A stretch of DNA of 36,054 bases from Patescibacteria group bacterium. Lineage in GTDB: Bacteria > Patescibacteriota > Patescibacteriia > WFTA01 > S139-112. A model generated the notes under the pieces. That model did no database searches and had not been told where the DNA came from. It saw only the letters and a program-made list of their open reading frames with translations. The position numbers and the translations under genes are program-made. This document shows, in pieces, positions 5,469-31,863 of the stretch; position 1 is the stretch's first letter, and each line of letters opens with the position of its first letter. The stretch is taken from contig WFTA01000033.1 in the NCBI GenBank assembly GCA_015485715.1, positions 1-36,054 on the forward strand. Direction: 5' to 3'.

Positions 5469-5471
5469 TAG

Positions 5472-5826
5472 TAATTTTCAATTTTCAACCCCAGTCATCC
5501 CAGTTATACGACCATGTCATGCGACATGGCAAGCGGGACAAGTACGACCCCAATCATACGATAGGGCAGGCGGGGTAAAATTTTCAATTAACCAATGAAT
5601 TTACAATGATTTAATATTCTAATGGTTTAAACTATAATATACTGATACTTAGTACAGTGTTTATGGTTTGATTCATTGGATAATTAAATAATTGAAAATT
5701 TTATATTAGGATTTAGGATTTATTTATAAATTGGTTTTTGGGAAATTGTTTGTAAATTGAAAATTGAAAATTTGTAAATTACCTTTGGTCATTGTTTAGA
5801 ATTTAGAGTTTCGTATTTAGGATTTT
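5472..5826 (+). repeat. AT-rich heptamer cassette between murF and tRNA-Glu
   Basis: AATTTTC runs at the 5' end, GAAAATT runs and a TTTAG(A/G)A tail at the 3' end. Confidence 0.7.
5488..5579 (+). repeat. Four nested REP-like mini-hairpin units
   Basis: Parses as ACCCCAGTCA[TCCCAGTTATACGA{CCATGTCATGCGACATGGCAAG}CGGGACAAG]TACGA[CCCCAATCATACGATAGGGCAGG]CGGGGTAAA. Confidence 0.75.
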
Positions 5827-5839
5827 ACTACTTTTTTAT

Positions 5840-5912
5840 GCCGCGTTCGTCTAGTGGCCTAGGACGCCAGGTTCTCAGCCTGGAAACACGGGTTCGATTC
5901 CCGTACGCGGTG
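5840..5912 (+). tRNA. tRNA-Glu(CTC)
   Basis: Cloverleaf: GCCGCGT/ACGCGGT acceptor, CCAGG-TTCTCAG-CCTGG anticodon arm, ACGGG-TTCGATT-CCCGT T arm; no encoded CCA. Confidence 0.95.
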
Positions 5913-5913
5913 C

Positions 5914-7974
5914 ATGGATATGAGGCGGGGAAAAAATATCCTTGATTTAAGGGCTTTAAATAAAAGCAGGAGAGGGGCTAAGCAAGATTCGTATTTTAGA
6001 TCTGTTTCGATACATAACAAAGATGATCAGACATCTTATACTAATAACCCGGGTTCTGCGATTAAAGCCCCTAAGATAAAATTCCACATTCTTAAAGGGA
6101 TTGTGGATGATTTTATTTTTTCTGTAAAAAGGCTTTTTGATTTTAAAAAAGATAAATACACCCTTAACTTGGCTCCTGTAGAGGAGAAGGATAATATTAT
6201 ATTTTACATTGTATCACAGGCTGCTAGGTATTTATTTATAATAGTTTACTATATCTTTAAGGTTGTTAAAGGTATAGTATTTTTTCCGATAGTTTTGCTT
6301 GATAATATTTTAGATTTTATTGCCAAGCTTATATATATTCTTATAAAATATATTCTGTCTTTTATTGTTTTCATATTGAAAAAGGTATTTTATTTTTTAA
6401 GAGAACTTATCTCAATATTGGATATTCAGGTACCCTATTTTTGGTATAAAAAGTTGTTTGTTTTTGCAGTTTTTTCTTTTATTCTCATCATTCCTATAAA
6501 AATGTATTATTTAAAGGACACAGTAAATAAAGTCAGAGGCGAGGTTTTAGGAATATCAATCAAAGCTTTGTCCTACACTAACATTTTATCTTATGTAGAT
6601 GATTATTTGCCGGTTTTAAATATTGCCAAGTACTTTGCAGGTATTCCTGATAAGCGCAATATTTTGCTTATTTTCCAAAACAATGCTGAGCTTAGGCCAA
6701 CAGGAGGGTTTTTAGGATCTTATGCCTATCTGTCTGTGAAAAATGCTGAGATACTTGATCTGGATATTCCGGGTGGTGGTTTTTATGATCTTAAGGGTTA
6801 TGTTTCAAGAAAGATAGAAGCTCCGCTTCCTTTTCATATATTTTCGCCATATTGGCAGGTATGGAATGCCAACTGGTTTGCTGATTTTCCCCTATCTGCT
6901 GAGAAAATAATTAAACTTTATGAGATCTCAGGAGGGGAAACAGTTGACGGTATTATAGCTATTACCCCTGATGTTGTAGAGGATATTCTCTCTCTCACAG
7001 GTCCAATAGAAGTAAAAGATGGTCTGACTATAGATAGAAATAATTTTAGGACACTTACCCAAACTGAGGTAGAGATAAATTATGACAAAGAAGAAAACAG
7101 ACCAAAAGAGTTTATTAAAGATTTATTTGTGAAGGTGGCAGAACGGCTTATAAGCCAGCTTGATGAAAAGCAGGGAAAAAAGAAGGAAGAATATATAAAA
7201 AATCTGCTATATATTATTGATAAAAATCTAAAAGAGAAAAATATTCTTGTTTATGCTTCAGATTCTGATATAGAAAAAGAAATTATAGATATTGGATGGG
7301 GAGGTGAGTTAAAGGATGTGCCTTACGGGAATTATTTGTCAGTTGTACATACAAATATAGGAGGAGGAAAATCTGATCTGGTGATTCAAAATAAAATAAG
7401 ACATATTATGAGAGTTCAGGATCAAAAGATTATATCTGAAGTATATCTTACCCGTACCCATAATGGCAAAGAAGGAGAATTATTTTACGGGACAAATAAT
7501 TTAGATTATATCAGATTTTACACTCCATTAGGTTCAAAACTTATAGAAGCATCAGGTTTTTTATCAGATGACATTTCAGACAGGTTTGAATATATAGAAG
7601 GTATCAATCTCAAAAAAGACGAGGATCTTGAATATTCTATGAAGACTGCATCAATGGATGCTAAAAGTAAGACTGAGATATATGAGGAATCAGGAAAAAC
7701 TGTTTTTGCAAACTGGCTTAGCTTGAAGCCCGGACAAAGTAAAACTGTTTATTTAAAATATGAGACTCCTCTTGGACAAGGCGAAGATTTGATGGTTTTT
7801 TACTGGCAAAAGCAGGCAGGAGATATGAATACATATATAGAAAGTGAGATATATTTAGAAGACAGTGTTAATAAAAGTTCAGTGTTCGGCGATAATGTGT
7901 TGATTAATGGAAATAAAATTATATACTCTAATGACCTTAGACAGGATAGATATGTATTTATTTCTTTGAAGTGA
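5914..7974 (+). CDS. DUF4012-domain membrane protein
   Basis: FQNNAELRPTGGFLGSY, NWFADFP, DGIIAI motifs; several N-terminal hydrophobic segments; start may be 5920. Confidence 0.8.
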   Translation: MDMRRGKNILDLRALNKSRRGAKQDSYFRSVSIHNKDDQTSYTNNPGSAIKAPKIKFHILKGIVDDFIFSVKRLFDFKKDKYTLNLAPVEEKDNIIFYIVSQAARYLFIIVYYIFKVVKGIVFFPIVLLDNILDFIAKLIYILIKYILSFIVFILKKVFYFLRELISILDIQVPYFWYKKLFVFAVFSFILIIPIKMYYLKDTVNKVRGEVLGISIKALSYTNILSYVDDYLPVLNIAKYFAGIPDKRNILLIFQNNAELRPTGGFLGSYAYLSVKNAEILDLDIPGGGFYDLKGYVSRKIEAPLPFHIFSPYWQVWNANWFADFPLSAEKIIKLYEISGGETVDGIIAITPDVVEDILSLTGPIEVKDGLTIDRNNFRTLTQTEVEINYDKEENRPKEFIKDLFVKVAERLISQLDEKQGKKKEEYIKNLLYIIDKNLKEKNILVYASDSDIEKEIIDIGWGGELKDVPYGNYLSVVHTNIGGGKSDLVIQNKIRHIMRVQDQKIISEVYLTRTHNGKEGELFYGTNNLDYIRFYTPLGSKLIEASGFLSDDISDRFEYIEGINLKKDEDLEYSMKTASMDAKSKTEIYEESGKTVFANWLSLKPGQSKTVYLKYETPLGQGEDLMVFYWQKQAGDMNTYIESEIYLEDSVNKSSVFGDNVLINGNKIIYSNDLRQDRYVFISLK

Positions 7975-8126: not shown

Positions 8127-9623
8127 ATGTATAAAACAATCAAGACAATTTATATATTCATTATCTTTAGTCTTGTCTTTTCCGGGCTTTTTTATTCTGA
8201 GCAGGTACAAGCTGTTGATATATCATCAGTTGATGTAGAGGTGACAGGGAATAAGGCAGTATTTACTTGGCAGACTGACAGGATGTCGGTTGGATGTGTA
8301 AAATATGGTCTCTCGTTTGAATACGAAAATATGATCTGTGAAGTGGGTGCAGGATATGACCATTATGTATCAGTTAAGGGACTGCTTCCCAATACTGTGT
8401 ATCACTATAAGATAGTATCAAAATATGGTAATGAGGTTGATGAGACTTTTGATGGAGTTTTTCAGACAGGAACTGTTTTTGATGAGGACGGACCAAGAAT
8501 ACTTGATATAAGATATGAATATGTTGGATCTAATTTTGTGTTAATTAAATTTAGGACTGATGAACCTGCCCGTGCGTTTATCAGATACGGTACAGACGGA
8601 AGAATGTATTCAAAAAATTATTCTTCATATTCCAGATTTACAAAAAATCATGAAGTTATACTTAAGAGATTAAAACCTGATACAACGTATTTATATAAGA
8701 TTCAGGCAGTCGACAGATCCAGAAACAGATCAGAGACAGAGATATTCAGGTTTACTACAAAAAGTCAGGAGGAGGCAGACGATTATGCTCCTTTAAAAAT
8801 AGTCAGTATAACTCCTCTTTCATATAAGGATGACCAGATTGGATATAATGATGCACTTATATCGTGGGCTCTAAACAAGCCAGCTCAGGCAACTATAAGA
8901 TTTGGTACAAATTCTCTGCGTCTTTCTGAAAAAATATCTATACCGGGGTATAACTTGCAGTCAGAGATTAGATTAAGAAACCTTAAACCAGAACAGATAT
9001 ATTACTATACACTGGAGATGAGGGATATTACAGGAAAGAGAATTAGATTTCCAAAGAGCGGTTATTTCTCTTTTAAGACTTTATCCAGAGCCAAGAAAAA
9101 GATAGTAAAAGGGGCCAGCATCAGCAGAGTGAGATTTGTGAAATCGCTGCATTCCCCTTATGTTTATATGTTGGTAAATGGAAAGAAGCACAGATTGAGG
9201 ACAGCTGAAGTAATGGCAAGTTATGGTATAACCATTAAAGATGTAGATATTGTATCTGCTGCAGAGCTTAAATATCTTGATGACGTAAGACTTGTCAAGA
9301 CTCCAAATTCTCCAACAGTTTATTTATTGTATCCTGAAAGGGGATTTAAGATCCCAATTCCTAATCCAGATATTTTTGAATCTTATCCGAAAAACAGATG
9401 GCAGGATATTGTGGTTATAACTAAAGAAGATCTGGATTCTTTTACCTCTGCCTATCTGGTGAAACCTGAAGGAGTACCTGTAATATATCTTTTGAAAGAT
9501 GGTATTGTCTATCCTTTTTACACTGAAGAAGTGCTGAAATATGAAGGATATAATCCTGACGATGTTGTAGAGATATCTCAAAAGCATTTTGAGTTTTTCA
9601 CTCAGGGTCCGTTAATTAGATAG
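8127..9623 (+). CDS. Secreted protein with three FN3/purple-acid-phosphatase-N-like domains and C-terminal VK..SP.VY.L repeats
   Basis: Signal peptide; repeated (W/F).TD....V.YG...L.P.T.Y.Y motifs; three VK(S/T/P)...VY/IY repeats. Confidence 0.7.
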   Translation: MYKTIKTIYIFIIFSLVFSGLFYSEQVQAVDISSVDVEVTGNKAVFTWQTDRMSVGCVKYGLSFEYENMICEVGAGYDHYVSVKGLLPNTVYHYKIVSKYGNEVDETFDGVFQTGTVFDEDGPRILDIRYEYVGSNFVLIKFRTDEPARAFIRYGTDGRMYSKNYSSYSRFTKNHEVILKRLKPDTTYLYKIQAVDRSRNRSETEIFRFTTKSQEEADDYAPLKIVSITPLSYKDDQIGYNDALISWALNKPAQATIRFGTNSLRLSEKISIPGYNLQSEIRLRNLKPEQIYYYTLEMRDITGKRIRFPKSGYFSFKTLSRAKKKIVKGASISRVRFVKSLHSPYVYMLVNGKKHRLRTAEVMASYGITIKDVDIVSAAELKYLDDVRLVKTPNSPTVYLLYPERGFKIPIPNPDIFESYPKNRWQDIVVITKEDLDSFTSAYLVKPEGVPVIYLLKDGIVYPFYTEEVLKYEGYNPDDVVEISQKHFEFFTQGPLIR

Positions 9624-18604: not shown

Positions 18605-18611
18605 ACTATAA

Positions 18612-18902
18612 GTTAATTTTTAATTTTCAAATTTTCAATAAATTACCTAAACAATTCCAAATACCAAAACCCCAATAACAAATCAAATCCCAAATCCAAA
18701 TGACAAATAACAATAATAATGATAGTTTGGGCTTTGGAATTTGACATTTATAGATTGGGTTATTGGAAAATTGATTAGAGTAATTGATTTAAAAATTAAA
18801 GAATTAGATATTATTTAACCCTAAACCACATGGGATTTAGGGCTGTCTAGAACCCCACGTGGTTCTGGGTAAAAATTATAAAATTACAAAATTAAAAATT
18901 AT
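18612..18902 (+). repeat. Full-length AT-rich heptamer cassette with nested inverted repeats
   Basis: Matches 136-285 directly and 23960-24150 as reverse complement. Confidence 0.75.
18818..18870. repeat. GC-rich double-hairpin insertion within the cassette
   Basis: CCCTAAA..TTTAGGG and AGAACC..GGTTCT hairpins, both with CCAC(A/G)TGG; the uninterrupted host GATATTATTTATAAAATT is seen at 25611. Confidence 0.6.
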
Positions 18903-18978
18903 TGTTGGTTCTTGGGATATTGATTAGTGTAATTAGAGTTAATTAAGGTTATTAATTTTGCATTTTGAATTTTTATTT

Positions 18979-20508: not shown

Positions 20509-20529
20509 AAAAATTCAAAAGTCAAAATT

Positions 20530-20647
20530 CAACCCAGTCCCACCTAGCTCCACTTTTTGAGGTAAATCCTGCTATAAAGCCAATGGGTATGTAATTTGAT
20601 TTAAAGCAACATATCTGCAGATAATGTTGAAAAGTGGGGCTGGATTG
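20530..20647. mobile_element. MITE-like repeat, copy 2 (inverted relative to copy 1; partly duplicated left end)
   Basis: CAACCCAGTCCCAC-CTAGCTCCACTTTTT...AAAAGTGGGGCTGGATTG. Confidence 0.8.
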
Positions 20648-20713
20648 AAAATTGGTAAATTGATGAATTATTTTGGGGTTTGTTTAGGATTTAGGATTTC
20701 GGATTTAGGATTT
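20648..20713 (+). repeat. Heptamer tail (GTAAATT / TTTAGGA runs)
   Basis: Near-identical to 27832-27898 and similar to 5745-5826. Confidence 0.75.
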
Positions 20714-20804
20714 CATTTTTAGAATAATACAGATTAATAACGCTACTTAACAAACATTAAAAAACAATATTGATTTAATCCTCTATAACATCCTAATATA
20801 TATC

Positions 20805-21692
20805 TCAAAACTCTGATATTTCATCTATCAGAACCTGAAGTTCATCTATGGTTATGTGTTGATCAGTGTCTGTATAGGATGTTCCCACTTCTATCAAAAT
20901 ACCATCATAGAGATACCCGTCTTGCGTCTTCATCTGCATAGCCTTTACTGTTTCATCAACAATCTCGTCTCTCTTTTTAGGGCCCAGTGAATGACTGGGA
21001 TCAAAAAACAATCTGCTTCCTGTCTCAAGTTTTACTTTTTCAGCCAGTTGATGAACAGGTGCAGACCTGTAATCACCCTTATCTGGTGTATCTACACCTC
21101 TATGAATCAAAAAATAATCAGCACCTGCACTTTTAGTGTAAGATATCACGCCTTTCCAAGTTTTTTCCAAAACACTTTCTTCTGATCTATTTTCTCCATT
21201 CTGAGACAAAAGCAAATTTGACCATTTGGGATTTTTAAGACCTATCTGCCAGCTATATTCTCTGGCATATCTTGCCATCTCATATATATGCCAGCCCAGC
21301 TGGGCAGGAGCCGGGTTCCACAAAATAAATTCTCCCTCTCCCAGCTTTTTCGCGTACAAAGGAAGCTGAATATGGGGCAAAACTATCTCTGATGCAATTA
21401 CAAGCCCTGTGTCTTTTCTCACCTTTTCTGCTATTTCTATGCTTGGAAGCATATCCCACTCATCAGAGGATACACCTTTAATTGCCTTATCCAAATTTGC
21501 AAGTGCGCTTTCTACATCCATTCCCATACTTTCCGAACTTGAAGAAAAATTTGTCCTTGATTTAAGACCTACCACTCTCAGACCATATACAGCCCTTTTG
21601 CCTCCAGTCTTTAGATCAGCTATTTTATACAGCTCTTCAATATTGTTTTTATTTACAGAACACGGTCCTGCTATTATCTTTACCTCCTGCAT
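20805..21692 (-). CDS. Divergent class I DAHP synthase / KDO8P synthase family protein
   Basis: IIAGPCSV, K.RT, LKN, HRG, DPSH, DGILIEV motifs; aromatic attenuator upstream favours DAHP synthase. Confidence 0.75.
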   Translation of the reverse strand: MQEVKIIAGPCSVNKNNIEELYKIADLKTGGKRAVYGLRVVGLKSRTNFSSSSESMGMDVESALANLDKAIKGVSSDEWDMLPSIEIAEKVRKDTGLVIASEIVLPHIQLPLYAKKLGEGEFILWNPAPAQLGWHIYEMARYAREYSWQIGLKNPKWSNLLLSQNGENRSEESVLEKTWKGVISYTKSAGADYFLIHRGVDTPDKGDYRSAPVHQLAEKVKLETGSRLFFDPSHSLGPKKRDEIVDETVKAMQMKTQDGYLYDGILIEVGTSYTDTDQHITIDELQVLIDEISEF

Positions 21693-21696
21693 ATAC

Positions 21697-22626
21697 TCAT
21701 GAATTTAATTCTAAATTCCTTTCTAAAACCCTGCTCCTTATTTTATCCAAAATACCATTTTTTAAAGCTTTATTCAAATCATCACAGGAAGGAAGAGCTG
21801 AACTGTTTCCAAATTTCGTACAGTGCATAGCTGATGCAAAATTTGCAAATCTGCATGCTCTCTCCATATCAAGGCCCCTCAAAAGTGCATAAGCAAATGC
21901 TCCTCTGAACACATCTCCTGCCCCCAAAGTATCTACTGCATTAACACTATAGGCCGGAATATGCAAAATCTCTTTCTCACGGCAAATGTAAGAGCCTGAT
22001 CCACCTGCAGTGATAACCAAATCTTTCTCAACTATCCTGCGTATTGCACTGGCATTAAACATCCAATTACTCTTGGCATCAAATTGTTTAACTGCCTCTA
22101 TGGATATAACAGGATGAGTAGAATGCCTGAGCATTCTAAATGCCTTATGGCTTATCTCAACTGATGTATCTACAATTAAAATACTATTCTTTTTCCTGTG
22201 TTTTACAACATACATAAAAGCCCTGAAACTGTTTCTGTCAAAAATAAACAAATCACTTGAGGCATCTCTATATGATATCCTGACAGGTTTCCTGTATTCA
22301 ATAGGAGATTTAATTCCTGTACGGGTGCCGCTGGCAGTATTGATAAGATAGGTATGGACTTTAGTGCGTTTCTGAATATTCTCTATTACTTTTACCTTTT
22401 CCCTGACCAATGTCATCTTGGCCCTTTTTCCGTAAGCATCTCTGCCTATATTGCCGTATAGTGTTGTATCTATACCCATACGGGATAAAAAAAGTGCAGC
22501 TATAGCAGATGGTCCTCCCACAGAGTAGACAACCTTGCTTGGTGCATGTTTAAAATCTTCACGCACAAATTCATCAAGTATATATGATTGGTCTATAGTT
22601 ATATCACCTACAGCTACTGCTTTCAT
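21697..22626 (-). CDS. PfkB-family carbohydrate kinase
   Basis: GG.S..AA..L...G, IG.D..G, DTLGAGDVF. Confidence 0.9.
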   Translation of the reverse strand: MKAVAVGDITIDQSYILDEFVREDFKHAPSKVVYSVGGPSAIAALFLSRMGIDTTLYGNIGRDAYGKRAKMTLVREKVKVIENIQKRTKVHTYLINTASGTRTGIKSPIEYRKPVRISYRDASSDLFIFDRNSFRAFMYVVKHRKKNSILIVDTSVEISHKAFRMLRHSTHPVISIEAVKQFDAKSNWMFNASAIRRIVEKDLVITAGGSGSYICREKEILHIPAYSVNAVDTLGAGDVFRGAFAYALLRGLDMERACRFANFASAMHCTKFGNSSALPSCDDLNKALKNGILDKIRSRVLERNLELNS

Positions 22627-22640
22627 ATGACTTCATAAAT

Positions 22641-22668
22641 TAAAAAAGCCGCCTATATTTGGCGGCTA
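22641..22668 (-). terminator. Attenuator terminator
   Basis: Minus strand AGCCGCC-AAATATA-GGCGGCT followed by a T run, ~15 nt before the PfkB start. Confidence 0.85.
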
Positions 22669-22694
22669 TCAAAAAATCCTGAAAAATACCTAAA

Positions 22695-22799
22695 CTAGCC
22701 GCCTAAGGCGAACCAAAAATAAAAAAATCCAAAATAGAAATTTTGGTTTCCAAAACTTTTTCTACAATTATCTATCTTTTTATTATCTGCTTTTTTCAT
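22695..22799 (-). CDS. Aromatic amino acid attenuator leader peptide (34 aa)
   Basis: Manual translation MKKADNKKIDNCRKSFGNQNFYFGFFYFWFALGG; overlaps antiterminator arm GGCGGCTA. Confidence 0.85.
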   Translation of the reverse strand: MKKADNKKIDNCRKSFGNQNFYFGFFYFWFALGG

Positions 22800-22808
22800 A
22801 GCAATTTT

Positions 22809-22850
22809 ATAATATCACAAATATTAAATTATGCAATACATTTATCCACA
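22809..22850 (-). promoter_or_regulatory. Promoter of the leader peptide with adjacent DnaA box
   Basis: TTGCAT(22836-22831)-16 nt-TATTAT(22814-22809) with TGn extension; TTATCCACA at 22842-22850 on the + strand. Confidence 0.55.
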
Positions 22851-22859
22851 AAAGTCTTG

Positions 22860-23873
22860 TTATAGGCCGCATATTTTATTTACTTCTATTTTAGAAAGTG
22901 TCTCTTTCGTGGGTATTTTTTTTAAAATACCATATTTTGCGCCTATTTCAGATACTACCTGAGCAGCATTAAGCGCTGCCAATCTTAGCGCATACTCTAT
23001 ATCACCATTTTCTCTATACAGCCCTGCTACAAATGATGAACCAAAAGTATCACCAGCACCTGTTGCATCCTTCACCTCTCTGGCCAAAGATGGAACAAAG
23101 TAAATATTGTTATCAAAACCATCAACCCCATACACAGCATAGGCTCCTCTTGCTCCGTCAGTAATCACAACATATCCTGTGGTAGTAAGTATAATATCAG
23201 CAAACAGGGCCTTGATATCTGATATTTTATCCTCTCCAGCAAGCATGGCTGCCTCTCTTCTGTTTAAAATAAGAACATCTATATTTCTAAATATCGGGAG
23301 CAATTGCTTTACCCCCGCTCCGAGTTCGTCTTTTCCGGGATTTATTGCAACCTTCATACTTTTTCTCTTGGCAACAGAAATAATTTTCTCCAAAATATTC
23401 AAATCTCCTCCCAAAGATGTTATATAAATCCAGTGTGATTCAATTTTCCTTAGTGGAATATCTTTGAGCTTCATATTTCTAGACGCTCCTCTATAGATAA
23501 AAGCAGTCCTATCCCCCCATCTTGTAAGCATAACTGTAGAGTAAGCTGTATTTAAAATCTTATCCACTACTACATATTTCCTGTCTATCTTTGCTTTTTT
23601 CAGAAAATCAAGTATGGTCCTGCCTACTATATCATCTCCTATTTTTGAAATTAAGGCAGTTTTGTACCCAAAAGATCTAAATACATAAGCTGAATTAGTA
23701 CCTCCTCCACCAACAGAAAAGTGAATACTTTCTATATCTATCTTATCCCCAACATAAAAACACTCCTTTTTTGTAGTGGTAACTTCGTCCACAGGTACAG
23801 ATATATCCTCCAGTCCCTTGCAGATCAATATTACATCCTGTGTAGCTGAACCTATACTTACAAAGTCAAACAT
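22860..23873 (-). CDS. PfkB-family carbohydrate kinase
   Basis: GGGGTNSA, NPG, ILNRREA, DATGAGDTF. Confidence 0.92.
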   Translation of the reverse strand: MFDFVSIGSATQDVILICKGLEDISVPVDEVTTTKKECFYVGDKIDIESIHFSVGGGGTNSAYVFRSFGYKTALISKIGDDIVGRTILDFLKKAKIDRKYVVVDKILNTAYSTVMLTRWGDRTAFIYRGASRNMKLKDIPLRKIESHWIYITSLGGDLNILEKIISVAKRKSMKVAINPGKDELGAGVKQLLPIFRNIDVLILNRREAAMLAGEDKISDIKALFADIILTTTGYVVITDGARGAYAVYGVDGFDNNIYFVPSLAREVKDATGAGDTFGSSFVAGLYRENGDIEYALRLAALNAAQVVSEIGAKYGILKKIPTKETLSKIEVNKICGL

Positions 23874-23884
23874 AACATAAACTA

Positions 23885-24150
23885 TAAATACTAAATTCTA
23901 AATTCTAAATTCGAAACACTAAATAACCTTAAAATCCTAAATTCTAAACAATTCCAAAATTCAAAATCCTAAACAATAACCAATAACCCAGTTTAATAAA
24001 TGTCAAATGACAAAGCTCAAATGACAAATTAATGACAAATGTCAAAATCTAAACCGTCATTATTATTATTATTTGACATTTGGATTTTGGAATTTGGAAT
24101 TCTATATAGGTTTGAGTTAATTAGGAATTAGGGTAATTATATATAAAATT
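23885..24150 (-). repeat. AT-rich heptamer cassette on the minus strand
   Basis: Reverse complement of the 18630-18780 core plus a CTAAATT (TTTAG-type) tail next to the downstream start codon. Confidence 0.75.
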
Positions 24151-24170
24151 AAATCTGATTAATAATTCAT

Positions 24171-25175
24171 TTATATTTTCCTTGGTTTTATTTTAGGATA
24201 TTTTCTAATCATCTTTCTAATCCCTGCCTCTGTTAAAAGGCCTTTTTGGGCTCCTGTGTACTGAACTACAGAAGTCGCATTGGCATTGCCCCACAGCAAG
24301 GCTTCAGATACAGACTTACCTCTTATCAAAGCCGCTGTAAATCCTATGGAAAAGCTATCACCAGCACCTGTTCTCTCTTTTGCCTTCAATGGATATGCTT
24401 TTATATACCAGGTATCACTGCCGTCATGCACATAAGCACCATTGGGTCCGTCTGTTATCACCACAATATGCGGACCTAGTTCGTAAAGTCCTCTGGCAAG
24501 ATGTTTAACCCACATCTTAACTTCTCTATTTGTGGATTTTACAGAAATAGGCTTTTCATCCAAAAGTATAGCCGCCTCTTCTTTATTGAGAAGTATGAGG
24601 TATGATGAACAAAGTATTTCATACAGATTATCTCTACCCTCTCTTAATTGATATGTACCGGGTTGAAAAACCAGATTAATATTTTCTTTATCTACCAAAT
24701 CCTTTATCTGCCTATGAACTTTAGAATGATCAGGGCCAAGTGATGAATAATATATCCATTTAGTCTTTAATTTTTTGGGCAAATTATATCTCCACTTTTC
24801 ATGCTTAACTATAATAGTTCTTTCTGCACCATAATTTAAAACAACTGAGTAATTGGACGTCCTTCCTCTTTCTATCTTTACATATCTGGTGTTTACTTTT
24901 TCTTTTTGGAAAACTTTTAAAATACTCTCACCCACCAAATCATCTCCTATATGTGTATATATTGCAGTGTTCAGCCCCAGTCGTGCCGCACCAACAGCTG
25001 CATTGGCACTATTCCCTACTCCCGGAACTTGTGTTACTTTTTTGGCAGGAATTTTATCTGCCCAAGACAAGCACAAAAGGCATTTATTCGGCTTAATATC
25101 ACACAATACAGAAGCTTCATCTATTTCTACAAATGTGTCATGAGTTGAATCTCCTATAGATATTAGGTCAAACAT
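24171..25175 (-). CDS. PfkB-family carbohydrate kinase
   Basis: GNSANAAVG.ARLG, LNKEEA, ERTGAGDSF. Confidence 0.92.
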   Translation of the reverse strand: MFDLISIGDSTHDTFVEIDEASVLCDIKPNKCLLCLSWADKIPAKKVTQVPGVGNSANAAVGAARLGLNTAIYTHIGDDLVGESILKVFQKEKVNTRYVKIERGRTSNYSVVLNYGAERTIIVKHEKWRYNLPKKLKTKWIYYSSLGPDHSKVHRQIKDLVDKENINLVFQPGTYQLREGRDNLYEILCSSYLILLNKEEAAILLDEKPISVKSTNREVKMWVKHLARGLYELGPHIVVITDGPNGAYVHDGSDTWYIKAYPLKAKERTGAGDSFSIGFTAALIRGKSVSEALLWGNANATSVVQYTGAQKGLLTEAGIRKMIRKYPKIKPRKI

Positions 25176-25179
25176 ACTA

Positions 25180-25652
25180 CAGAATTTTTAATTTTTAATT
25201 TAATAATTTTATAAACAATTTTTAAATATCTAATTAAAAAATACCTAATTTTAAACATTTCTTACAATCTTGGAAAATATAAGTACAAACTGGTGTGCTT
25301 CGTCCCATAAATCCATCCATTCTATTTTTTTATCTTTCCTGGCCACTGATAACATTCTTAACCACTGTTTGGTTTCATTTGTCTCCTCTAAACAAATACG
25401 TATTTTATTTTTAAAATCCCTTTTTGAAGAAGCTTGGTTGGCTTCCATGTAATTAGCTCCTATACTAGTTGCTGATTTTACAAGCTGATTTATTAAAGGC
25501 TGGCTAACAGTATCAATTGGAATTGACTTACAAAATAATATAATATTTTCTCCAAACTTAGCAGTTCGTTCTTCTAGGTCGTATTGCATATTTTAAAAAT
25601 TAAAAATTGAGATATTATTTATAAAATTAAAAATTATAAAATTAGAAATTAT
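25180..25652. repeat. Imperfect inverted AT-rich arms (25180-25236 and 25594-25652) enclosing the four-helix-bundle gene
   Basis: AATTTTTAATTTTTAATT..AATTTTATAAACAAT...ATATCTAATT versus AATTGAGATATTATTTATAAAATTAAAAATTATAAAATTAGAAATT. Confidence 0.7.
25251..25589 (-). CDS. Four-helix-bundle protein (TIGR02436 / 23S rRNA IVS protein family)
   Basis: YDLEERT..F, QL.KS.TSIGANYMEA....SKRDF..KI.I...E..ET..WL. Confidence 0.9.
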   Translation of the reverse strand: MQYDLEERTAKFGENIILFCKSIPIDTVSQPLINQLVKSATSIGANYMEANQASSKRDFKNKIRICLEETNETKQWLRMLSVARKDKKIEWMDLWDEAHQFVLIFSKIVRNV

Positions 25653-25659
25653 CTCTATC

Positions 25660-26646
25660 TTATTTTAATTTTATTATACTTTTCACCTTTTCCACAACCG
25701 CATCTCTGTTGAGCTTGTACTCTTTCAAAAGTTCATCAGGTGTTCCTGACTCACCAAATGTATCTTCCACACCCACTCTCTCTATATAGACAGGATATTC
25801 TCTGGATAAAAATTCAGCTATAGCTCCGCCCAGACCCCCTGCCATCTGGTGTTCCTCTACTGTCACCACTGCCCCTGTTTTCTTTGCAGATCTTAAGATA
25901 GTTTTTTCATCTAAAGGCTTTATGGTATGAGAATTTATAACTTCGCAGTCTATCTTATACTTTTTATACAAATGTTCTGCAGCAGCCAGTGCCTCATACA
26001 CCAGAGGGCCACACGCAATAATACTAACATCTCCGCCTTCTCTATAAACTACAGCTTTGCCTATTTTAAAAGGGGTTTTTGGAGTTGTGATGATAGGAGT
26101 TTTCTCTCTAGCAAACCTGATATAGACAGGACCTTTTATCTTTGCTGCAGCAACAGTAGCTTTAGCAGTCTCTATAGAATCGCAAGGAGCAATAACAGTC
26201 ATATTGGGTAAAACTCTGGTAATAGCTATATCTTCCAAAGCCTGATGCGTAGCACCGTCAGGGCCTACTGATATACCGCTGTGAGCTCCCGCAATCTTCA
26301 CATTGGCATTAGAATAGCAGATAGACACTCTTATCTGATCCCAGTTTCTGCCCGGTGAAAATACAGCATAAGATGAGATAAAAGGTATTTTGCCGGCAAA
26401 AGACATACCTGCTGCTATTCCTGCCATATTCTGCTCTGCAACACCTATTTCTACAAATCTGTCTGGAAACTTATCCTCAAACATCTTAGATCTTGTAGAA
26501 TCTTTCAAATCACAGCAAAGAACTACTACATTTTTATCCCTTTTCCCGGCTTCTACCAACCCTCTTCCATAACCATTTCTGGTCGGTTCCATCTCAATAT
26601 TCTTGCTAAAAAGTTTTGGATTCAAATAAGCCTTTTTGTTCAACAT
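25660..26646 (-). CDS. Transketolase, C-terminal subunit
   Basis: GVAEQNM, G.SVGPDGATHQALED, TIKPLD, TVEEHQ..GGLG. Confidence 0.95.
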   Translation of the reverse strand: MLNKKAYLNPKLFSKNIEMEPTRNGYGRGLVEAGKRDKNVVVLCCDLKDSTRSKMFEDKFPDRFVEIGVAEQNMAGIAAGMSFAGKIPFISSYAVFSPGRNWDQIRVSICYSNANVKIAGAHSGISVGPDGATHQALEDIAITRVLPNMTVIAPCDSIETAKATVAAAKIKGPVYIRFAREKTPIITTPKTPFKIGKAVVYREGGDVSIIACGPLVYEALAAAEHLYKKYKIDCEVINSHTIKPLDEKTILRSAKKTGAVVTVEEHQMAGGLGGAIAEFLSREYPVYIERVGVEDTFGESGTPDELLKEYKLNRDAVVEKVKSIIKLK

Positions 26647-26649
26647 AAG

Positions 26650-26740
26650 AATTTTTAATTTTTAATTTTACAATTTTTAAACAAATTAAATAAATCTATT
26701 TAAAGTTTGGAAAATTGTAAATTGTGAATTTGAAAATTTA
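26650..26740. repeat. Empty inverted heptamer cassette between the transketolase halves
   Basis: AATTTTTAATTTTTAATTTTACAATTTTTAAAC...GTTTGGAAAATTGTAAATTGTGAATTTGAAAATT. Confidence 0.7.
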
Positions 26741-26746
26741 TAACTC

Positions 26747-27607
26747 CTACTCACTGTCTCCACAGACTATTCGTCCTTCCATACTGCGCAGGTGTCTGAG
26801 AGCATGCTTAGCTTCTTCTTTCTTCGGTGGTTTGCCGTGCCAATTAAAATCACGTTCCATAAAATGCACACCCTTGCCCGGTATAGTATGGCATATTATG
26901 AGCGTTGGCTTTTCGTATATAGCTTCTGCCTCGTGGCATGCATCTATAATAGCCTCTATATTATGCCCGTCCACCTCCAATACATGCCAGCCAAAAGCTT
27001 CATATTTGTCTCTCAAAGGCTCAAGCGGCATAACATCTTCAGTAAATCCGTCAATCTGGATATTGTTTCTATCCATTAAAGCTGTAAGGTTATAAAGCCT
27101 GTTTTTGGCAGCAAACATAGCAGCTTCCCAAATCTGCCCCTCCTGTTGTTCCCCGTCACTCATTACACAGTATACTCTCCAGCTCGCACCATCCATAAGA
27201 GCAGCCAGCGCCATGCCTGCAGCTTGAGATAGTCCCTGTCCCAGAGGTCCTGATGAATTTTCCACACCCGGAAGCGCTAGATTGTGAGGATGTCCCTGAA
27301 GCCTTGTTCCCAGCTTTCTCAACGTCCAAAGCTCTTTTCTTGGAAAATATCCACATCTGGAAAGTACAGCATAAAGCACAGGAGCTATATGGCCGCAAGA
27401 AAGCACCAGCCTATCCCTGTCTTTCCAATTTGGCTTTTTAGGATCATGCCTCATTACAGCAAAATATAAAGCAGTAAAAACATCTGCCATACCAAGCGGC
27501 CCTGCTGAATGGCCTGATCCTGCTTTTACAAGCATTTTTACTATATCTTGACGGACAGAATTAGCTATTTTTTTAAGCTGTTTTTCAGTGTAATTTTGCT
27601 TAAACAT
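26747..27607 (-). CDS. Transketolase, N-terminal TPP-binding subunit
   Basis: GSGH, DRLVLSCGH, LQGHP, SGPLGQG, SDGE..EG..WEA. Confidence 0.95.
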   Translation of the reverse strand: MFKQNYTEKQLKKIANSVRQDIVKMLVKAGSGHSAGPLGMADVFTALYFAVMRHDPKKPNWKDRDRLVLSCGHIAPVLYAVLSRCGYFPRKELWTLRKLGTRLQGHPHNLALPGVENSSGPLGQGLSQAAGMALAALMDGASWRVYCVMSDGEQQEGQIWEAAMFAAKNRLYNLTALMDRNNIQIDGFTEDVMPLEPLRDKYEAFGWHVLEVDGHNIEAIIDACHEAEAIYEKPTLIICHTIPGKGVHFMERDFNWHGKPPKKEEAKHALRHLRSMEGRIVCGDSE

Positions 27608-27722
27608 ACAACTCCCCTTAATAATATTTGTAATTTAAACACCCTTCCTAATCCTCTTGTAAAAAAATCAAAATTATTATAACATAAATATAGGAAAAAG
27701 AAAAAAGTAATTTCCAAATTTT

Positions 27723-27831
27723 CAACCCAGCCCCACTTTTTGAGATAAATCTATGTTATAAAACCAGAGGGTATATAATTTGATTTAAAGCAACATATCT
27801 GCAGATAATGTTGAAAAGTGGGGCTGGATTG
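27723..27831. mobile_element. MITE-like repeat, copy 3
   Basis: CAACCCAGCCCCACTTTT...AAAAGTGGGGCTGGATTG (17/18 inverted match). Confidence 0.85.
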
Positions 27832-27898
27832 GTAAATTGGAAAATTGGTAAATTATATTTGGGTTTGTTTAGGATTTAGTATTTCGTATTTAGGATTT
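27832..27898 (+). repeat. Heptamer tail directly upstream of tRNA-Met
   Basis: GGTAAATTGGAAAATTGGTAAATT...GTTTAGGATTTAGTATTTCGTATTTAGGATTT. Confidence 0.75.
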
Positions 27899-27907
27899 AC
27901 AAATCAT

Positions 27908-30164: not shown

Positions 30165-30199
30165 ACATTTATTAGTTAATTGTAAAAGATTTTTAATCT

Positions 30200-30258
30200 A
30201 TAAATACTAAATTATAAACTCTAAATTCTAAAAACAACAAGAGACAATTTTCAATTTT
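30200..30258 (-). repeat. Heptamer tail upstream of tsf
   Basis: Minus strand GAAAATTGAAAATT...TTTAGAATTTAGAGTTTATAATTTAGTATTT. Confidence 0.7.
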
Positions 30259-30368
30259 CAACCCAGCCCCACTTTTCAACATTATCTGCAGATATGTTGC
30301 TTTAAATCAAATTATATAACCCTATGGTTTTATAACATAGTTTTATCTCAAAAAGTGGGGCTGGGTTG
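30259..30368. mobile_element. MITE-like repeat, copy 4, inside the rpsB-tsf operon
   Basis: Perfect 18-bp terminal inverted repeat CAACCCAGCCCCACTTTT / AAAAGTGGGGCTGGGTTG. Confidence 0.85.
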
Positions 30369-30396
30369 GTAAATTTGAAAATTAAATACATCGTTT

Positions 30397-31375: not shown

Positions 31376-31453
31376 AATTTTCAATCAACGATTTACAAAT
31401 AAGGATAATTGAAAATTTAGAGTTTAGAATTTAGTATTTCGGATTTAGAATTT
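31376..31453 (+). repeat. Minimal heptamer cassette
   Basis: AATTTTTCAAT...ATTGAAAATTT followed by TTTAGAGTTTAGAATTTAGTATTTCGGATTTAGAATTT. Confidence 0.7.
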
Positions 31454-31458
31454 GTATA

Positions 31459-31502
31459 TTTGGGTGGGTAGCTCAGGTGGTTACCCCGTCAGTCGACAGG
31501 GT
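31459..31502 (+). pseudogene. Duplicated tRNA-Ile 5' fragment ending at a mini-hairpin
   Basis: 31459-31483 identical to 31555-31579, followed by ACCCCGTC-AGTC-GACAGGGT. Confidence 0.8.
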
Positions 31503-31557
31503 TCATATCAAATCTTATTCATCTGTAAATCTCAATTCTGTAATAATAAGAATGTTT

Positions 31558-31631
31558 GGGTGGGTAGCTCAGGTGGTTAGAGCGCATCCCTGATAAGGAT
31601 GAGGTCGGAGGTTCGAGTCCTCCCTCACCCA
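31558..31631 (+). tRNA. tRNA-Ile(GAT)
   Basis: GGGTGGG/CTCACCC acceptor, CATCC-CTGATAA-GGATG, GGAGG-TTCGAGT-CCTCC. Confidence 0.96.
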
Positions 31632-31645
31632 CAGCAAATTTTCCC

Positions 31646-31863
31646 TTGCCTCGCTGAAACCTTGGTGAAAGCGGGCATCGCCTCGCCGAAGTTTTAACGA
31701 AGACGGGCATCGCCTCGCCGAAGTTTTAACGAAGACGGGCATCGCCTCGCCGTAGCTTTAGCGAAGGCGGGATTGCCTCGCTATAGTCTTGACAAAACTC
31801 GCCTTCGCACCGAATGTGCTATGGTAAAGCGCAGCTCTCCTATGCCAAGGCTTCGGCGAAGCG
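31646..31863. repeat. Tandem 32-bp GC-rich repeats (about 4.5 units) followed by two inverted relatives
   Basis: TCGCCTCGCCGAAGTTTTAACGAAGACGGGCA exact at 31678 and 31710, degenerate at 31646, 31742 and 31773; no spacers. Confidence 0.85.

Follow-up and report, generated by a model that had tools for sequence, protein, structure and literature searches.

A four-helix-bundle gene between inverted heptamer arms in a transketolase-PfkB operon: a probable mobile counterpart of rRNA intervening sequences

Proteins of the TIGR02436/PF05635 family were first seen within rRNA intervening sequences (IVSs), whose origin has been a question for more than 30 years, and to our knowledge the family has no assigned role outside diversity-generating retroelements (DGRs). 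The DGR protein Avd belongs to PF05635 as well, as a small protein with a four-helix-bundle fold. Tandem heptamers, the commonest long simple repeats in many bacteria, are equally unexplained.

The closest described system is the helix-45 IVS of Coxiella burnetii, which contains S23p. In the account given in PMC4990558, this IVS is closed by a 28-bp terminal stem within which RNase III cuts, and its S23p start is directly preceded by two or three GACAGAT heptamers in tandem; the same paper points by citation to ORF-bearing IVSs in Leptospira and others. PF05635 ORFs are also reported from insertions in the 16S and 23S genes of candidate-phyla-radiation (CPR) bacteria (PMC11270868). As for heptamer repeats, TAACTGA arrays are described from Beggiatoaceae, cyanobacteria and Bacteroidetes (PMC4679880), and the GGGAATC heptamers of Xanthomonas are often convergent, with 70-75 inverted pairs able to form stem-loops (PMC4692102). 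The main texts of these two papers, supplements aside, do not mention the four-helix family, and a full-text search of the literature returned no description of an arm-gene-arm four-helix cassette outside rRNA.

Here we analyze a 36,054-nucleotide stretch of DNA from a Patescibacteria group bacterium (the window), which forms contig C33 of the host genome (G000). The host genome comprises 0.98 Mb in 87 contigs with roughly 35% G+C and is 88.6% complete; its gene content is typical of a reduced CPR-type bacterium.

The arm-gene-arm unit and its insertion site

The 112-residue product of a minus-strand ORF in the window (25251..25589, start ATG at 25589) scores above the curated cut-offs of both profiles of the family named “23S rRNA intervening sequence protein”: TIGR02436 with 67.1 bits (cut-off 24), aligning residues 7-111 with profile positions 3-107 of 109, and PF05635 with 50.5 bits (cut-off 33.8). 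Chain A of PDB entry 2RLD matches residues 7-82 with an E value of 3.5e-12; we take 2RLD to be a four-helix bundle, and the fold of the 112-residue protein is thus a prediction by sequence match. The gene lies on the same strand as its two neighbors, a transketolase C-terminal half (tktC) and a PfkB-family sugar kinase (Table 1). Its position, its profile scores and the empty site in a relative described below agree with the earlier note on this DNA, in which a TIGR02436-like gene was said to split a transketolase-PfkB operon. Further along, the segment at 20805-23873 extends the string downstream of the split transketolase, which holds PfkB-family kinases at 21697-22626, 22860-23873 and 24171-25175 and a DAHP-synthase-I-family gene. 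Three such kinases in one string are an unusual sugar-kinase pile-up at such a small genome size.

Table 1. Coordinates of the genes, arms, gene-less arm pairs and element copies in the window
Feature	Position	Strand	Basis
Four-helix-bundle gene	25251..25589	-	TIGR02436, PF05635 and 2RLD_A match
Left arm (downstream in gene sense)	25183..25235		Tandem AATTTTT and degenerate copies; TRF array 25183-25210
Right arm (upstream in gene sense)	25598..25650		About 7-nt units, AAAAATT on the plus strand, TAATTTT in gene sense; TRF array 25593-25651
Transketolase C-terminal half (tktC), host gene upstream of the insertion	25660..26646	-	PF02779 and PF02780; NF004559 residues 315-625
Transketolase N-half (tktN)	26747..27607	-	Profile matches
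PfkB-family sugar kinase, host gene downstream of the insertion	24171..25175	-	PF00294, 123 bits; adjoins tktC in G001 and other relatives
Gene-less arm pair, tktN-tktC spacer	26650..26730		(AATTTTT)4 at 26650-26680 facing (AAATTGT)2.7 at 26712-26730, loop about 30 nt
Gene-less nested palindromic spacer	18613..18902		(TTAATTT)n at 18613-18635 facing (AAAATTAT)n at 18872-18902
Gene-less pair with inner palindrome	5473..5772		(AATTTTC)2.3 at 5473-5488 facing (TTGAAAA)3.3 at 5750-5772
~110-nt element copy between short heptamer arms	30245-30390	+	Spacer inverted repeat z 8.6
Other ~110-nt element copies	14-154, 20518-20662, 27702-27847	+, -, -	With 30245-30390, at four of the nine sites listed in the earlier note

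TRF finds period-7 arrays on both flanks of the gene, AATTTTT in 3.9 copies at 25183-25210 and TTAAAAA in 8.4 copies at 25593-25651, and the gene is thereby enclosed by inverted arrays of tandem 7-9-nt units, a layout that we call an arm-gene-arm cassette. The right arm (25598-25650) ends 8 nt short of the ATG, which puts heptameric repeats just upstream of the ORF start, a feature described for the Coxiella IVS. Aligning the left flank (25183-25235) with the reverse complement of the right matches 44 of 54 columns at a score of 54; dinucleotide shuffles average 27.8 (sd 5.2), and 1 in 1000 reaches this value. When flank complementarity is scored for all 181 host genes whose spacers measure 35 nt or more on each side (crude longest-ORF calls; median 16, 95th percentile 27), the window gene ranks first and the second intact family copy (C68:18428-18799) ranks second. 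Both the minimum-free-energy and the centroid fold of the 496-nt RNA pair the two arms. The arm alignment thus supplies the complementary, stem-closing termini of an IVS, at a fold energy that does not stand out from shuffles (z -0.46; 28 of 100 shuffles equally stable). Like this fold energy, three further observations count against reading the locus as a cassette: the arms consist of A and T only, among 66 other AT-rich intergenic 70-mers there are 3 that fit the left flank as well as its true partner does, and the left spacer is itself self-complementary with a score of 44. Overall, the arm-gene-arm feature at 25183-25650 is real and not a product of chance, and the imperfect inverted AAAAATT/AATTTTT arms that the earlier note had placed around the gene hold up.

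The tktN-tktC-PfkB string is conserved, with PfkB following tktC in 8 of 28 tkt loci from relatives, and the four-helix profile finds no family member across those 28 loci. In G001, the only relative belonging to the same family as the host, the tktC-PfkB spacer is about 75-90 nt long and holds neither the gene nor heptamer arms, and the tktN-tktC spacer is likewise free of arrays; two relatives carry other, unrelated small ORFs at the tktC-PfkB junction. Because the site is empty and armless in this relative, the 25183-25650 unit is an insertion, and it sits in a co-directional gene string. The C68 site is also empty and armless in G001, its two neighbor genes abutting, which makes two of the three host insertion sites empty there; the upstream neighbor of the third locus (C79) was not found in four relatives with the query used. 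This comparison of orthologous sites, proposed in the earlier note as a check, thus came out in favor of insertion at both the window and C68. G001 has two family copies of its own at other places, both broken by stops and each with arms of its own, such as (TAGGTTT)n facing (AAACCTA)n.

A family search of the host genome finds these three loci (window, C68 and C79) and no remnants beyond them. All three are bracketed by arms, each with a different repeat unit; the C79 copy is a pseudogene with two stops, its arms (CCTAATTA)n facing (TAATTAGG)n. The three proteins are 38-50% identical and have no arm unit in common, and there is therefore no sign of recent movement within the host genome: the copies are old residents and not recent duplicates. 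No transposase or recombinase lies beside any of the three loci, whose neighbors are housekeeping genes. PADLOC gives no match for the two family proteins submitted, and the host copies show no synteny with those of G001, G007 and G036.

Cassettes across the class

Of 201 genomes sampled from the class, 140 have TIGR02436 matches, the maximum being 14 copies per genome (a figure also given as per megabase). In other genomes, flank complementarity exceeds shuffles with z>6 at 14 of 28 scorable loci. Across 383 kb from six genomes other than the host, 14 of 16 family genes lie above the 95th percentile of 341 other genes (Mann-Whitney p 1.2e-7) and make up 14 of the 22 highest-ranked genes. Across the class, 44 of 53 unique loci have arms scoring 30 or more, with a median arm length of 33.5 nt; the remaining 9 loci have no clear arms, which counts against the cassette reading. 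Arms thus accompany the four-helix family far more than they do other genes, the outcome of an enrichment check that the earlier note had called for. Flank duplex energy was rejected as a genome-wide statistic: it is dominated by GC-rich spurious ORFs within rRNA and is of no use for A/T arms.

The arm period among 45 scoring rows, one locus being present twice, is 7 in 29, 8 in 10, 9 in 4 and 11 in 2. The units themselves vary between genomes (for example TAGTTTG, TAGCTTG, TAAGTGAG and CAGCAAGAC): each locus has its own repeat unit, yet its two arms stay complementary. Family genes usually lie only tens of bases from either neighbor, and 32 of 39 loci are co-oriented with both neighbors, with 2 of 39 antisense to both. 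In one genome (G013), two arm-gene-arm copies 39 kb apart at unrelated sites are 98.0% identical over 401 nt; the similarity sets in with the outer border of the upstream arm and stops within the downstream arm, the surroundings are unrelated, and the junctions of this one inspected pair show no target-site duplication. Gene and arms are thus copied together to new sites.

Arm similarity and protein similarity are correlated over 44 loci (Spearman 0.27; 1 of 2000 permutations as high), and one subgroup of the proteins has the (TAGCTTN)n arm type in several genomes. Common descent of entire cassettes suffices to produce this correlation, which is therefore not proof of recognition. Together, the 44 of 53 armed loci, the G013 pair and the arm-protein correlation support the proposal of the earlier note that the gene and its arms are one element. 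We also considered the sense-upstream arm as a three-frame stop-codon shield and rejected it, with the upstream arm blocking more frames in 16 rows, fewer in 13 and equally many in 16 (45 rows). A weaker strand bias is present in the upstream arm, with TAG outnumbering CTA 80 to 24, or 22 to 4 by loci.

The layout is also seen with other cargo. In G100 (L088:5338-5766), a GxxExxY-family gene (TIGR04256, 76.4 bits) lies between tktN and tktC, flanked by complementary arms of CACAAATG/CATTTGTG units. Operon and layout are the same, and the small cargo is of a second family. No member of the GxxExxY family is found in the host genome.

Gene-less arms, heptamer arrays and a dispersed element

Heptamer arrays detected by TRF are present at all nine places where the earlier note had seen empty sister cassettes. 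A test of seven of these places against mononucleotide shuffles, with a 700-nt spacer limit that left out 136-285 (contig start) and 31376-31453 (longer spacer), finds a spacer inverted repeat with z>4 at four: 5469-5913 (z 11.1), 18605-18957 (z 9.5), 27608-27844 and 30165-30396 (z 8.6). Spacer 26647-26746 has an inverted-repeat score of 58 and a z of 3.0, and spacers 20509-20804 (z 1.7) and 23874-24170 (z 1.1) close no better than the shuffles. Gene-less arm pairs are therefore real, the cleanest in the window being the three in Table 1. The count of about nine sister cassettes stands only in part: every site has its arrays, but four hold an unrelated element and two fail against shuffles.

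This element is about 110 nt long, with termini CCCAGCCCCAC...GTGGGGCTGGG, and has 32 full copies in the host genome that are roughly 81-94% identical. Every copy lies in a spacer, often next to the end of a contig, and most are enclosed by short inverted heptamer arms. A search of 40 relatives yielded nothing beyond a single marginal 22-nt hit, and an Rfam search gave no family above noise, only a chance-level microRNA hit. Its termini are absent beside the three four-helix genes of the host, so we regard it as a lineage-specific, MITE-like cargo in its own right rather than a product of deletion from the cassette; it resembles MITEs and REP-like palindromes in being short, intergenic and multicopy, with inverted ends and a lineage-specific burst. 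As the commonest cargo of the supposedly empty sites is this unrelated element, and the family search found no remnants beyond the three loci, the suggestion that gene-less arms derive from the gene cassette found no support.

Two further features of the element can be recorded. One of its strands carries a TGTATAAT-like extended -10 box; on a reading of the copy table by eye, this box faces a downstream gene or tRNA of the same orientation in about 19 of 29 copies. In addition, a hairpin of the host 23S rRNA (C76:~9190-9220, model positions about 1750-1780) has a CCCAGCCCCAC/GTGGAGCTGGG stem nearly the same as the element termini; we considered this hairpin as a gene-bearing IVS and rejected it as an ordinary 23S helix.

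Heptamer periodicity extends over the host spacers as a whole. Lag identity is 0.334, 0.314 and 0.311 at lags 7, 14 and 21, compared with about 0.30 elsewhere, and period 7 is the commonest TRF period, with 298 arrays of which 233 lie outside ORFs in a genome that is only 12% non-coding. Inverted repeats with z>4 occur in 44 of 300 spacers and in 5 of 300 coding controls. The genome also holds 28 inverted pairs of TRF arrays, most of them gene-less and spaced 90-280 nt apart. Similarly, only 24 of the 170 7-9-nt arrays in 383 kb of family-rich genomes lie within 200 nt of a family gene, and in G176 a gene-less heptamer pair flanks uvrB.

The density of such arrays follows the family. In untargeted samples, each taken from the first part of contig 1 (up to 20 kb; minimum locus length 9 kb), 24 7-9-nt arrays occur in 310 kb from 16 genomes without a family match, compared with 86 in 340 kb from 18 genomes with at least 5 copies (Mann-Whitney p 0.003); setting aside those near family ORFs leaves 84, about three times the family-less level. 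Arrays of other periods show no difference (0.281 vs 0.244 per kb), and inverted pairs number 0 and 7, respectively. With one sample per genome and kinship ignored, array density correlates with family copy number (Spearman 0.51).

Some arrays stand close to tRNA genes. (TTTAGGA)n/(AATTTAG)n arrays of 4-6 units are found at 5795-5825, 20683-20713, 27868-27899 and 31414-31453; tRNA-Glu, tRNA-Met and a tRNA-like fragment begin 8-15 nt beyond the ends of such arrays, and 20683-20713 precedes no called gene. Reversed arrays of this type (30201-30232 and 23885-23925) lie upstream of tsf and a PfkB gene, and overall these arrays look promoter-proximal. The first ~24 nt of tRNA-Ile with a 3-nt leader are duplicated exactly ~97 nt upstream (31458-31484 vs 31555-31581), followed by a short GC hairpin, CCCCGTCAGTCGACAGGG, and the same duplicated arrangement precedes a tRNA-Ala-like gene elsewhere in the host genome (C48, about 5890-5915). 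Such 5' duplications may have been left behind by an insertion into the D-loop region. Just downstream of tRNA-Ile, a 32-nt tandem repeat (CGGGCATCGCCTCGCCGAAGTTTTAACGAAGA; 31672-31781, 3.5 copies, 92% matches) is GC-rich within an AT-rich spacer.

Interpretation and comparison with known systems

Taking these observations together, we propose that 25183-25650 is probably one inserted, mobile unit, the operon-spacer counterpart of the ORF-bearing 23S rRNA IVS and an instance of a widespread cassette type. Such a cassette would need no promoter of its own, and would be transcribed with the tkt-PfkB operon. In the operon transcript, the arms would pair into a stem of ~50 bp with the gene in the loop, and host RNase III would then cut this stem as it does in rRNA IVSs, releasing the cassette RNA; the stem would also keep the insertion tolerable for the host transcript. 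We infer operon transcription and RNase III processing from the analogy with IVSs and from the co-orientation bias. The host genome encodes RNase III (C3:36890-37543, 241.8 bits). For the four-helix protein, our best guess is a role as an oligomer bound to the repeated arms. The suggestion of the earlier note that the protein may bind gene-less arm RNAs draws its one line of support from the correlation across genomes.

Other readings of the locus have to be weighed against this one. The arms might belong to slippage-prone heptamer arrays and palindromes already present in the host spacers, with promoter-proximal, terminator-like or structural roles for the host or with no function, and the four-helix gene would merely have landed, or survive best, within one such palindrome. 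Because heptamer arrays fill the host spacers, a gene dropped between two of them would look bracketed, and the autocorrelation at lags 7, 14 and 21, the 298 period-7 arrays (233 outside ORFs), the z>4 inverted repeats in 44/300 spacers against 5/300 coding controls, the 28 inverted array pairs, most of them gene-less, the (TTTAGGA)n-type arrays directly upstream of tRNA genes, and the neighboring tktN-tktC spacer, with the same AATTTTT/AAAATTG arms and no gene, are all consistent with such an origin. We nonetheless regard it as unlikely: the two intact host family genes rank 1 and 2 of 181, arms are gene-specific in other genomes (14 of 16 above the 95th percentile of 341), G001 has arms at its two family pseudogenes and none at its two tkt spacers, and in G013 gene and arms were copied together. 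A further reading, that the gene encodes the Avd accessory protein of a DGR, is most improbable, and the DGR connection drawn in the earlier note has no local support. The window protein has no Avd match, its neighbors are a transketolase and a sugar kinase, and a search of the 88.6%-complete genome for a PF00078 reverse transcriptase came up empty; in favor of this reading are the inclusion of Avd in PF05635 and a weak NF033474 match of the C68 paralog, whose 26.3 bits fall far below the 80-bit cut-off.

Somewhat harder to set aside, if still doubtful, is the idea that the arms act at the level of DNA. They would be the terminal inverted repeats of a small non-autonomous transposable unit, or ends of it that fold into hairpins or cruciforms; an enzyme encoded elsewhere would move the unit, and RNA pairing would be incidental. 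Presence and absence at orthologous sites, the sharp boundaries at the arms of the 98%-identical G013 pair, the frequent decay (two stops in C79, stops in both G001 copies) and the GxxExxY cargo (TIGR04256) between heptamer arms at tktN-tktC in G100 are what such a unit should show. Against it, no transposase or recombinase lies next to the three host loci, the G013 pair shows no target-site duplication, and arm units differ even within one genome, unlike ends recognized by one enzyme. Moreover, a co-orientation bias of 32 vs 2 points to dependence on transcription and not to DNA symmetry alone. We favor the operon-spacer counterpart of an IVS.

The data also hint that the four-helix family and the heptamer hairpins belong together. 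We tentatively raise the possibility, speculative at this stage, that the family and the unexplained spacer heptamer arrays form one system, in which an oligomer of the protein recognizes hairpin-arm units, as RNA or single-stranded DNA, and acts both on its own cassette and in trans, propagating or maintaining gene-less hairpins. If this were true, gene-bearing cassettes would be the autonomous members and gene-less hairpins their dependents, and rRNA IVSs would be a special case that happened to be noticed first. The window locus and the comparisons made here tie together the four-helix family, heptamer repeats and the origin of rRNA IVSs, a tie that rests on the arm-gene-arm unit in an operon spacer, on its gain, loss and copying as a unit, and on copy number tracking the density of 7-9-nt arrays. 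A vague family annotation thereby becomes a set of questions that can be tested at the bench, including whether RNase III cuts the stem and whether the protein binds the arm repeats. Genome annotation is affected too: in reduced genomes these cassettes interrupt operons and spacers, and the arms fragment assemblies.

Among the known systems, DGR Avd differs from the window gene in its defining marks: the adjacent reverse transcriptase, the template and variable repeats and an NF033474 score above the 80-bit cut-off are all lacking here. The four-helix cassette differs from MITEs and REP-like palindromes in carrying an ORF and in having tandem-array ends that change from copy to copy, and we know of no cognate transposase. 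Like the TAACTGA and GGGAATC repeats as described in PMC4679880 and PMC4692102, the arrays here repeat a 7-nt unit in tandem within spacers and often lie just before a start codon; in those reports there is one unit per genome, whereas many units occur per genome here.

The ORF-bearing 23S IVS differs from the window cassette in its setting and in its arms. The cassette lies between two protein-coding genes, tktC and PfkB, and not within 23S rRNA helix 25 or 45; both of its arms are long arrays with locus-specific units, and the RNase III step is proposed here by analogy. None of the three host family loci is inside the host 23S gene (C76:7279-11258). At 3980 nt, that gene exceeds its model of 2925 positions; its insertions add up to about 1 kb and occur near model positions 228, 290 and 583. 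The kinship with 23S IVSs that the earlier note had drawn is nonetheless apt. As far as the account in PMC4990558 extends, the two share the same protein family in the loop, complementary stem-closing termini, decay of the ORF, a dependence on the host transcript that is presumed for the cassette and, as in the Coxiella IVS, heptamers right before the start codon, whose number varies between strains.
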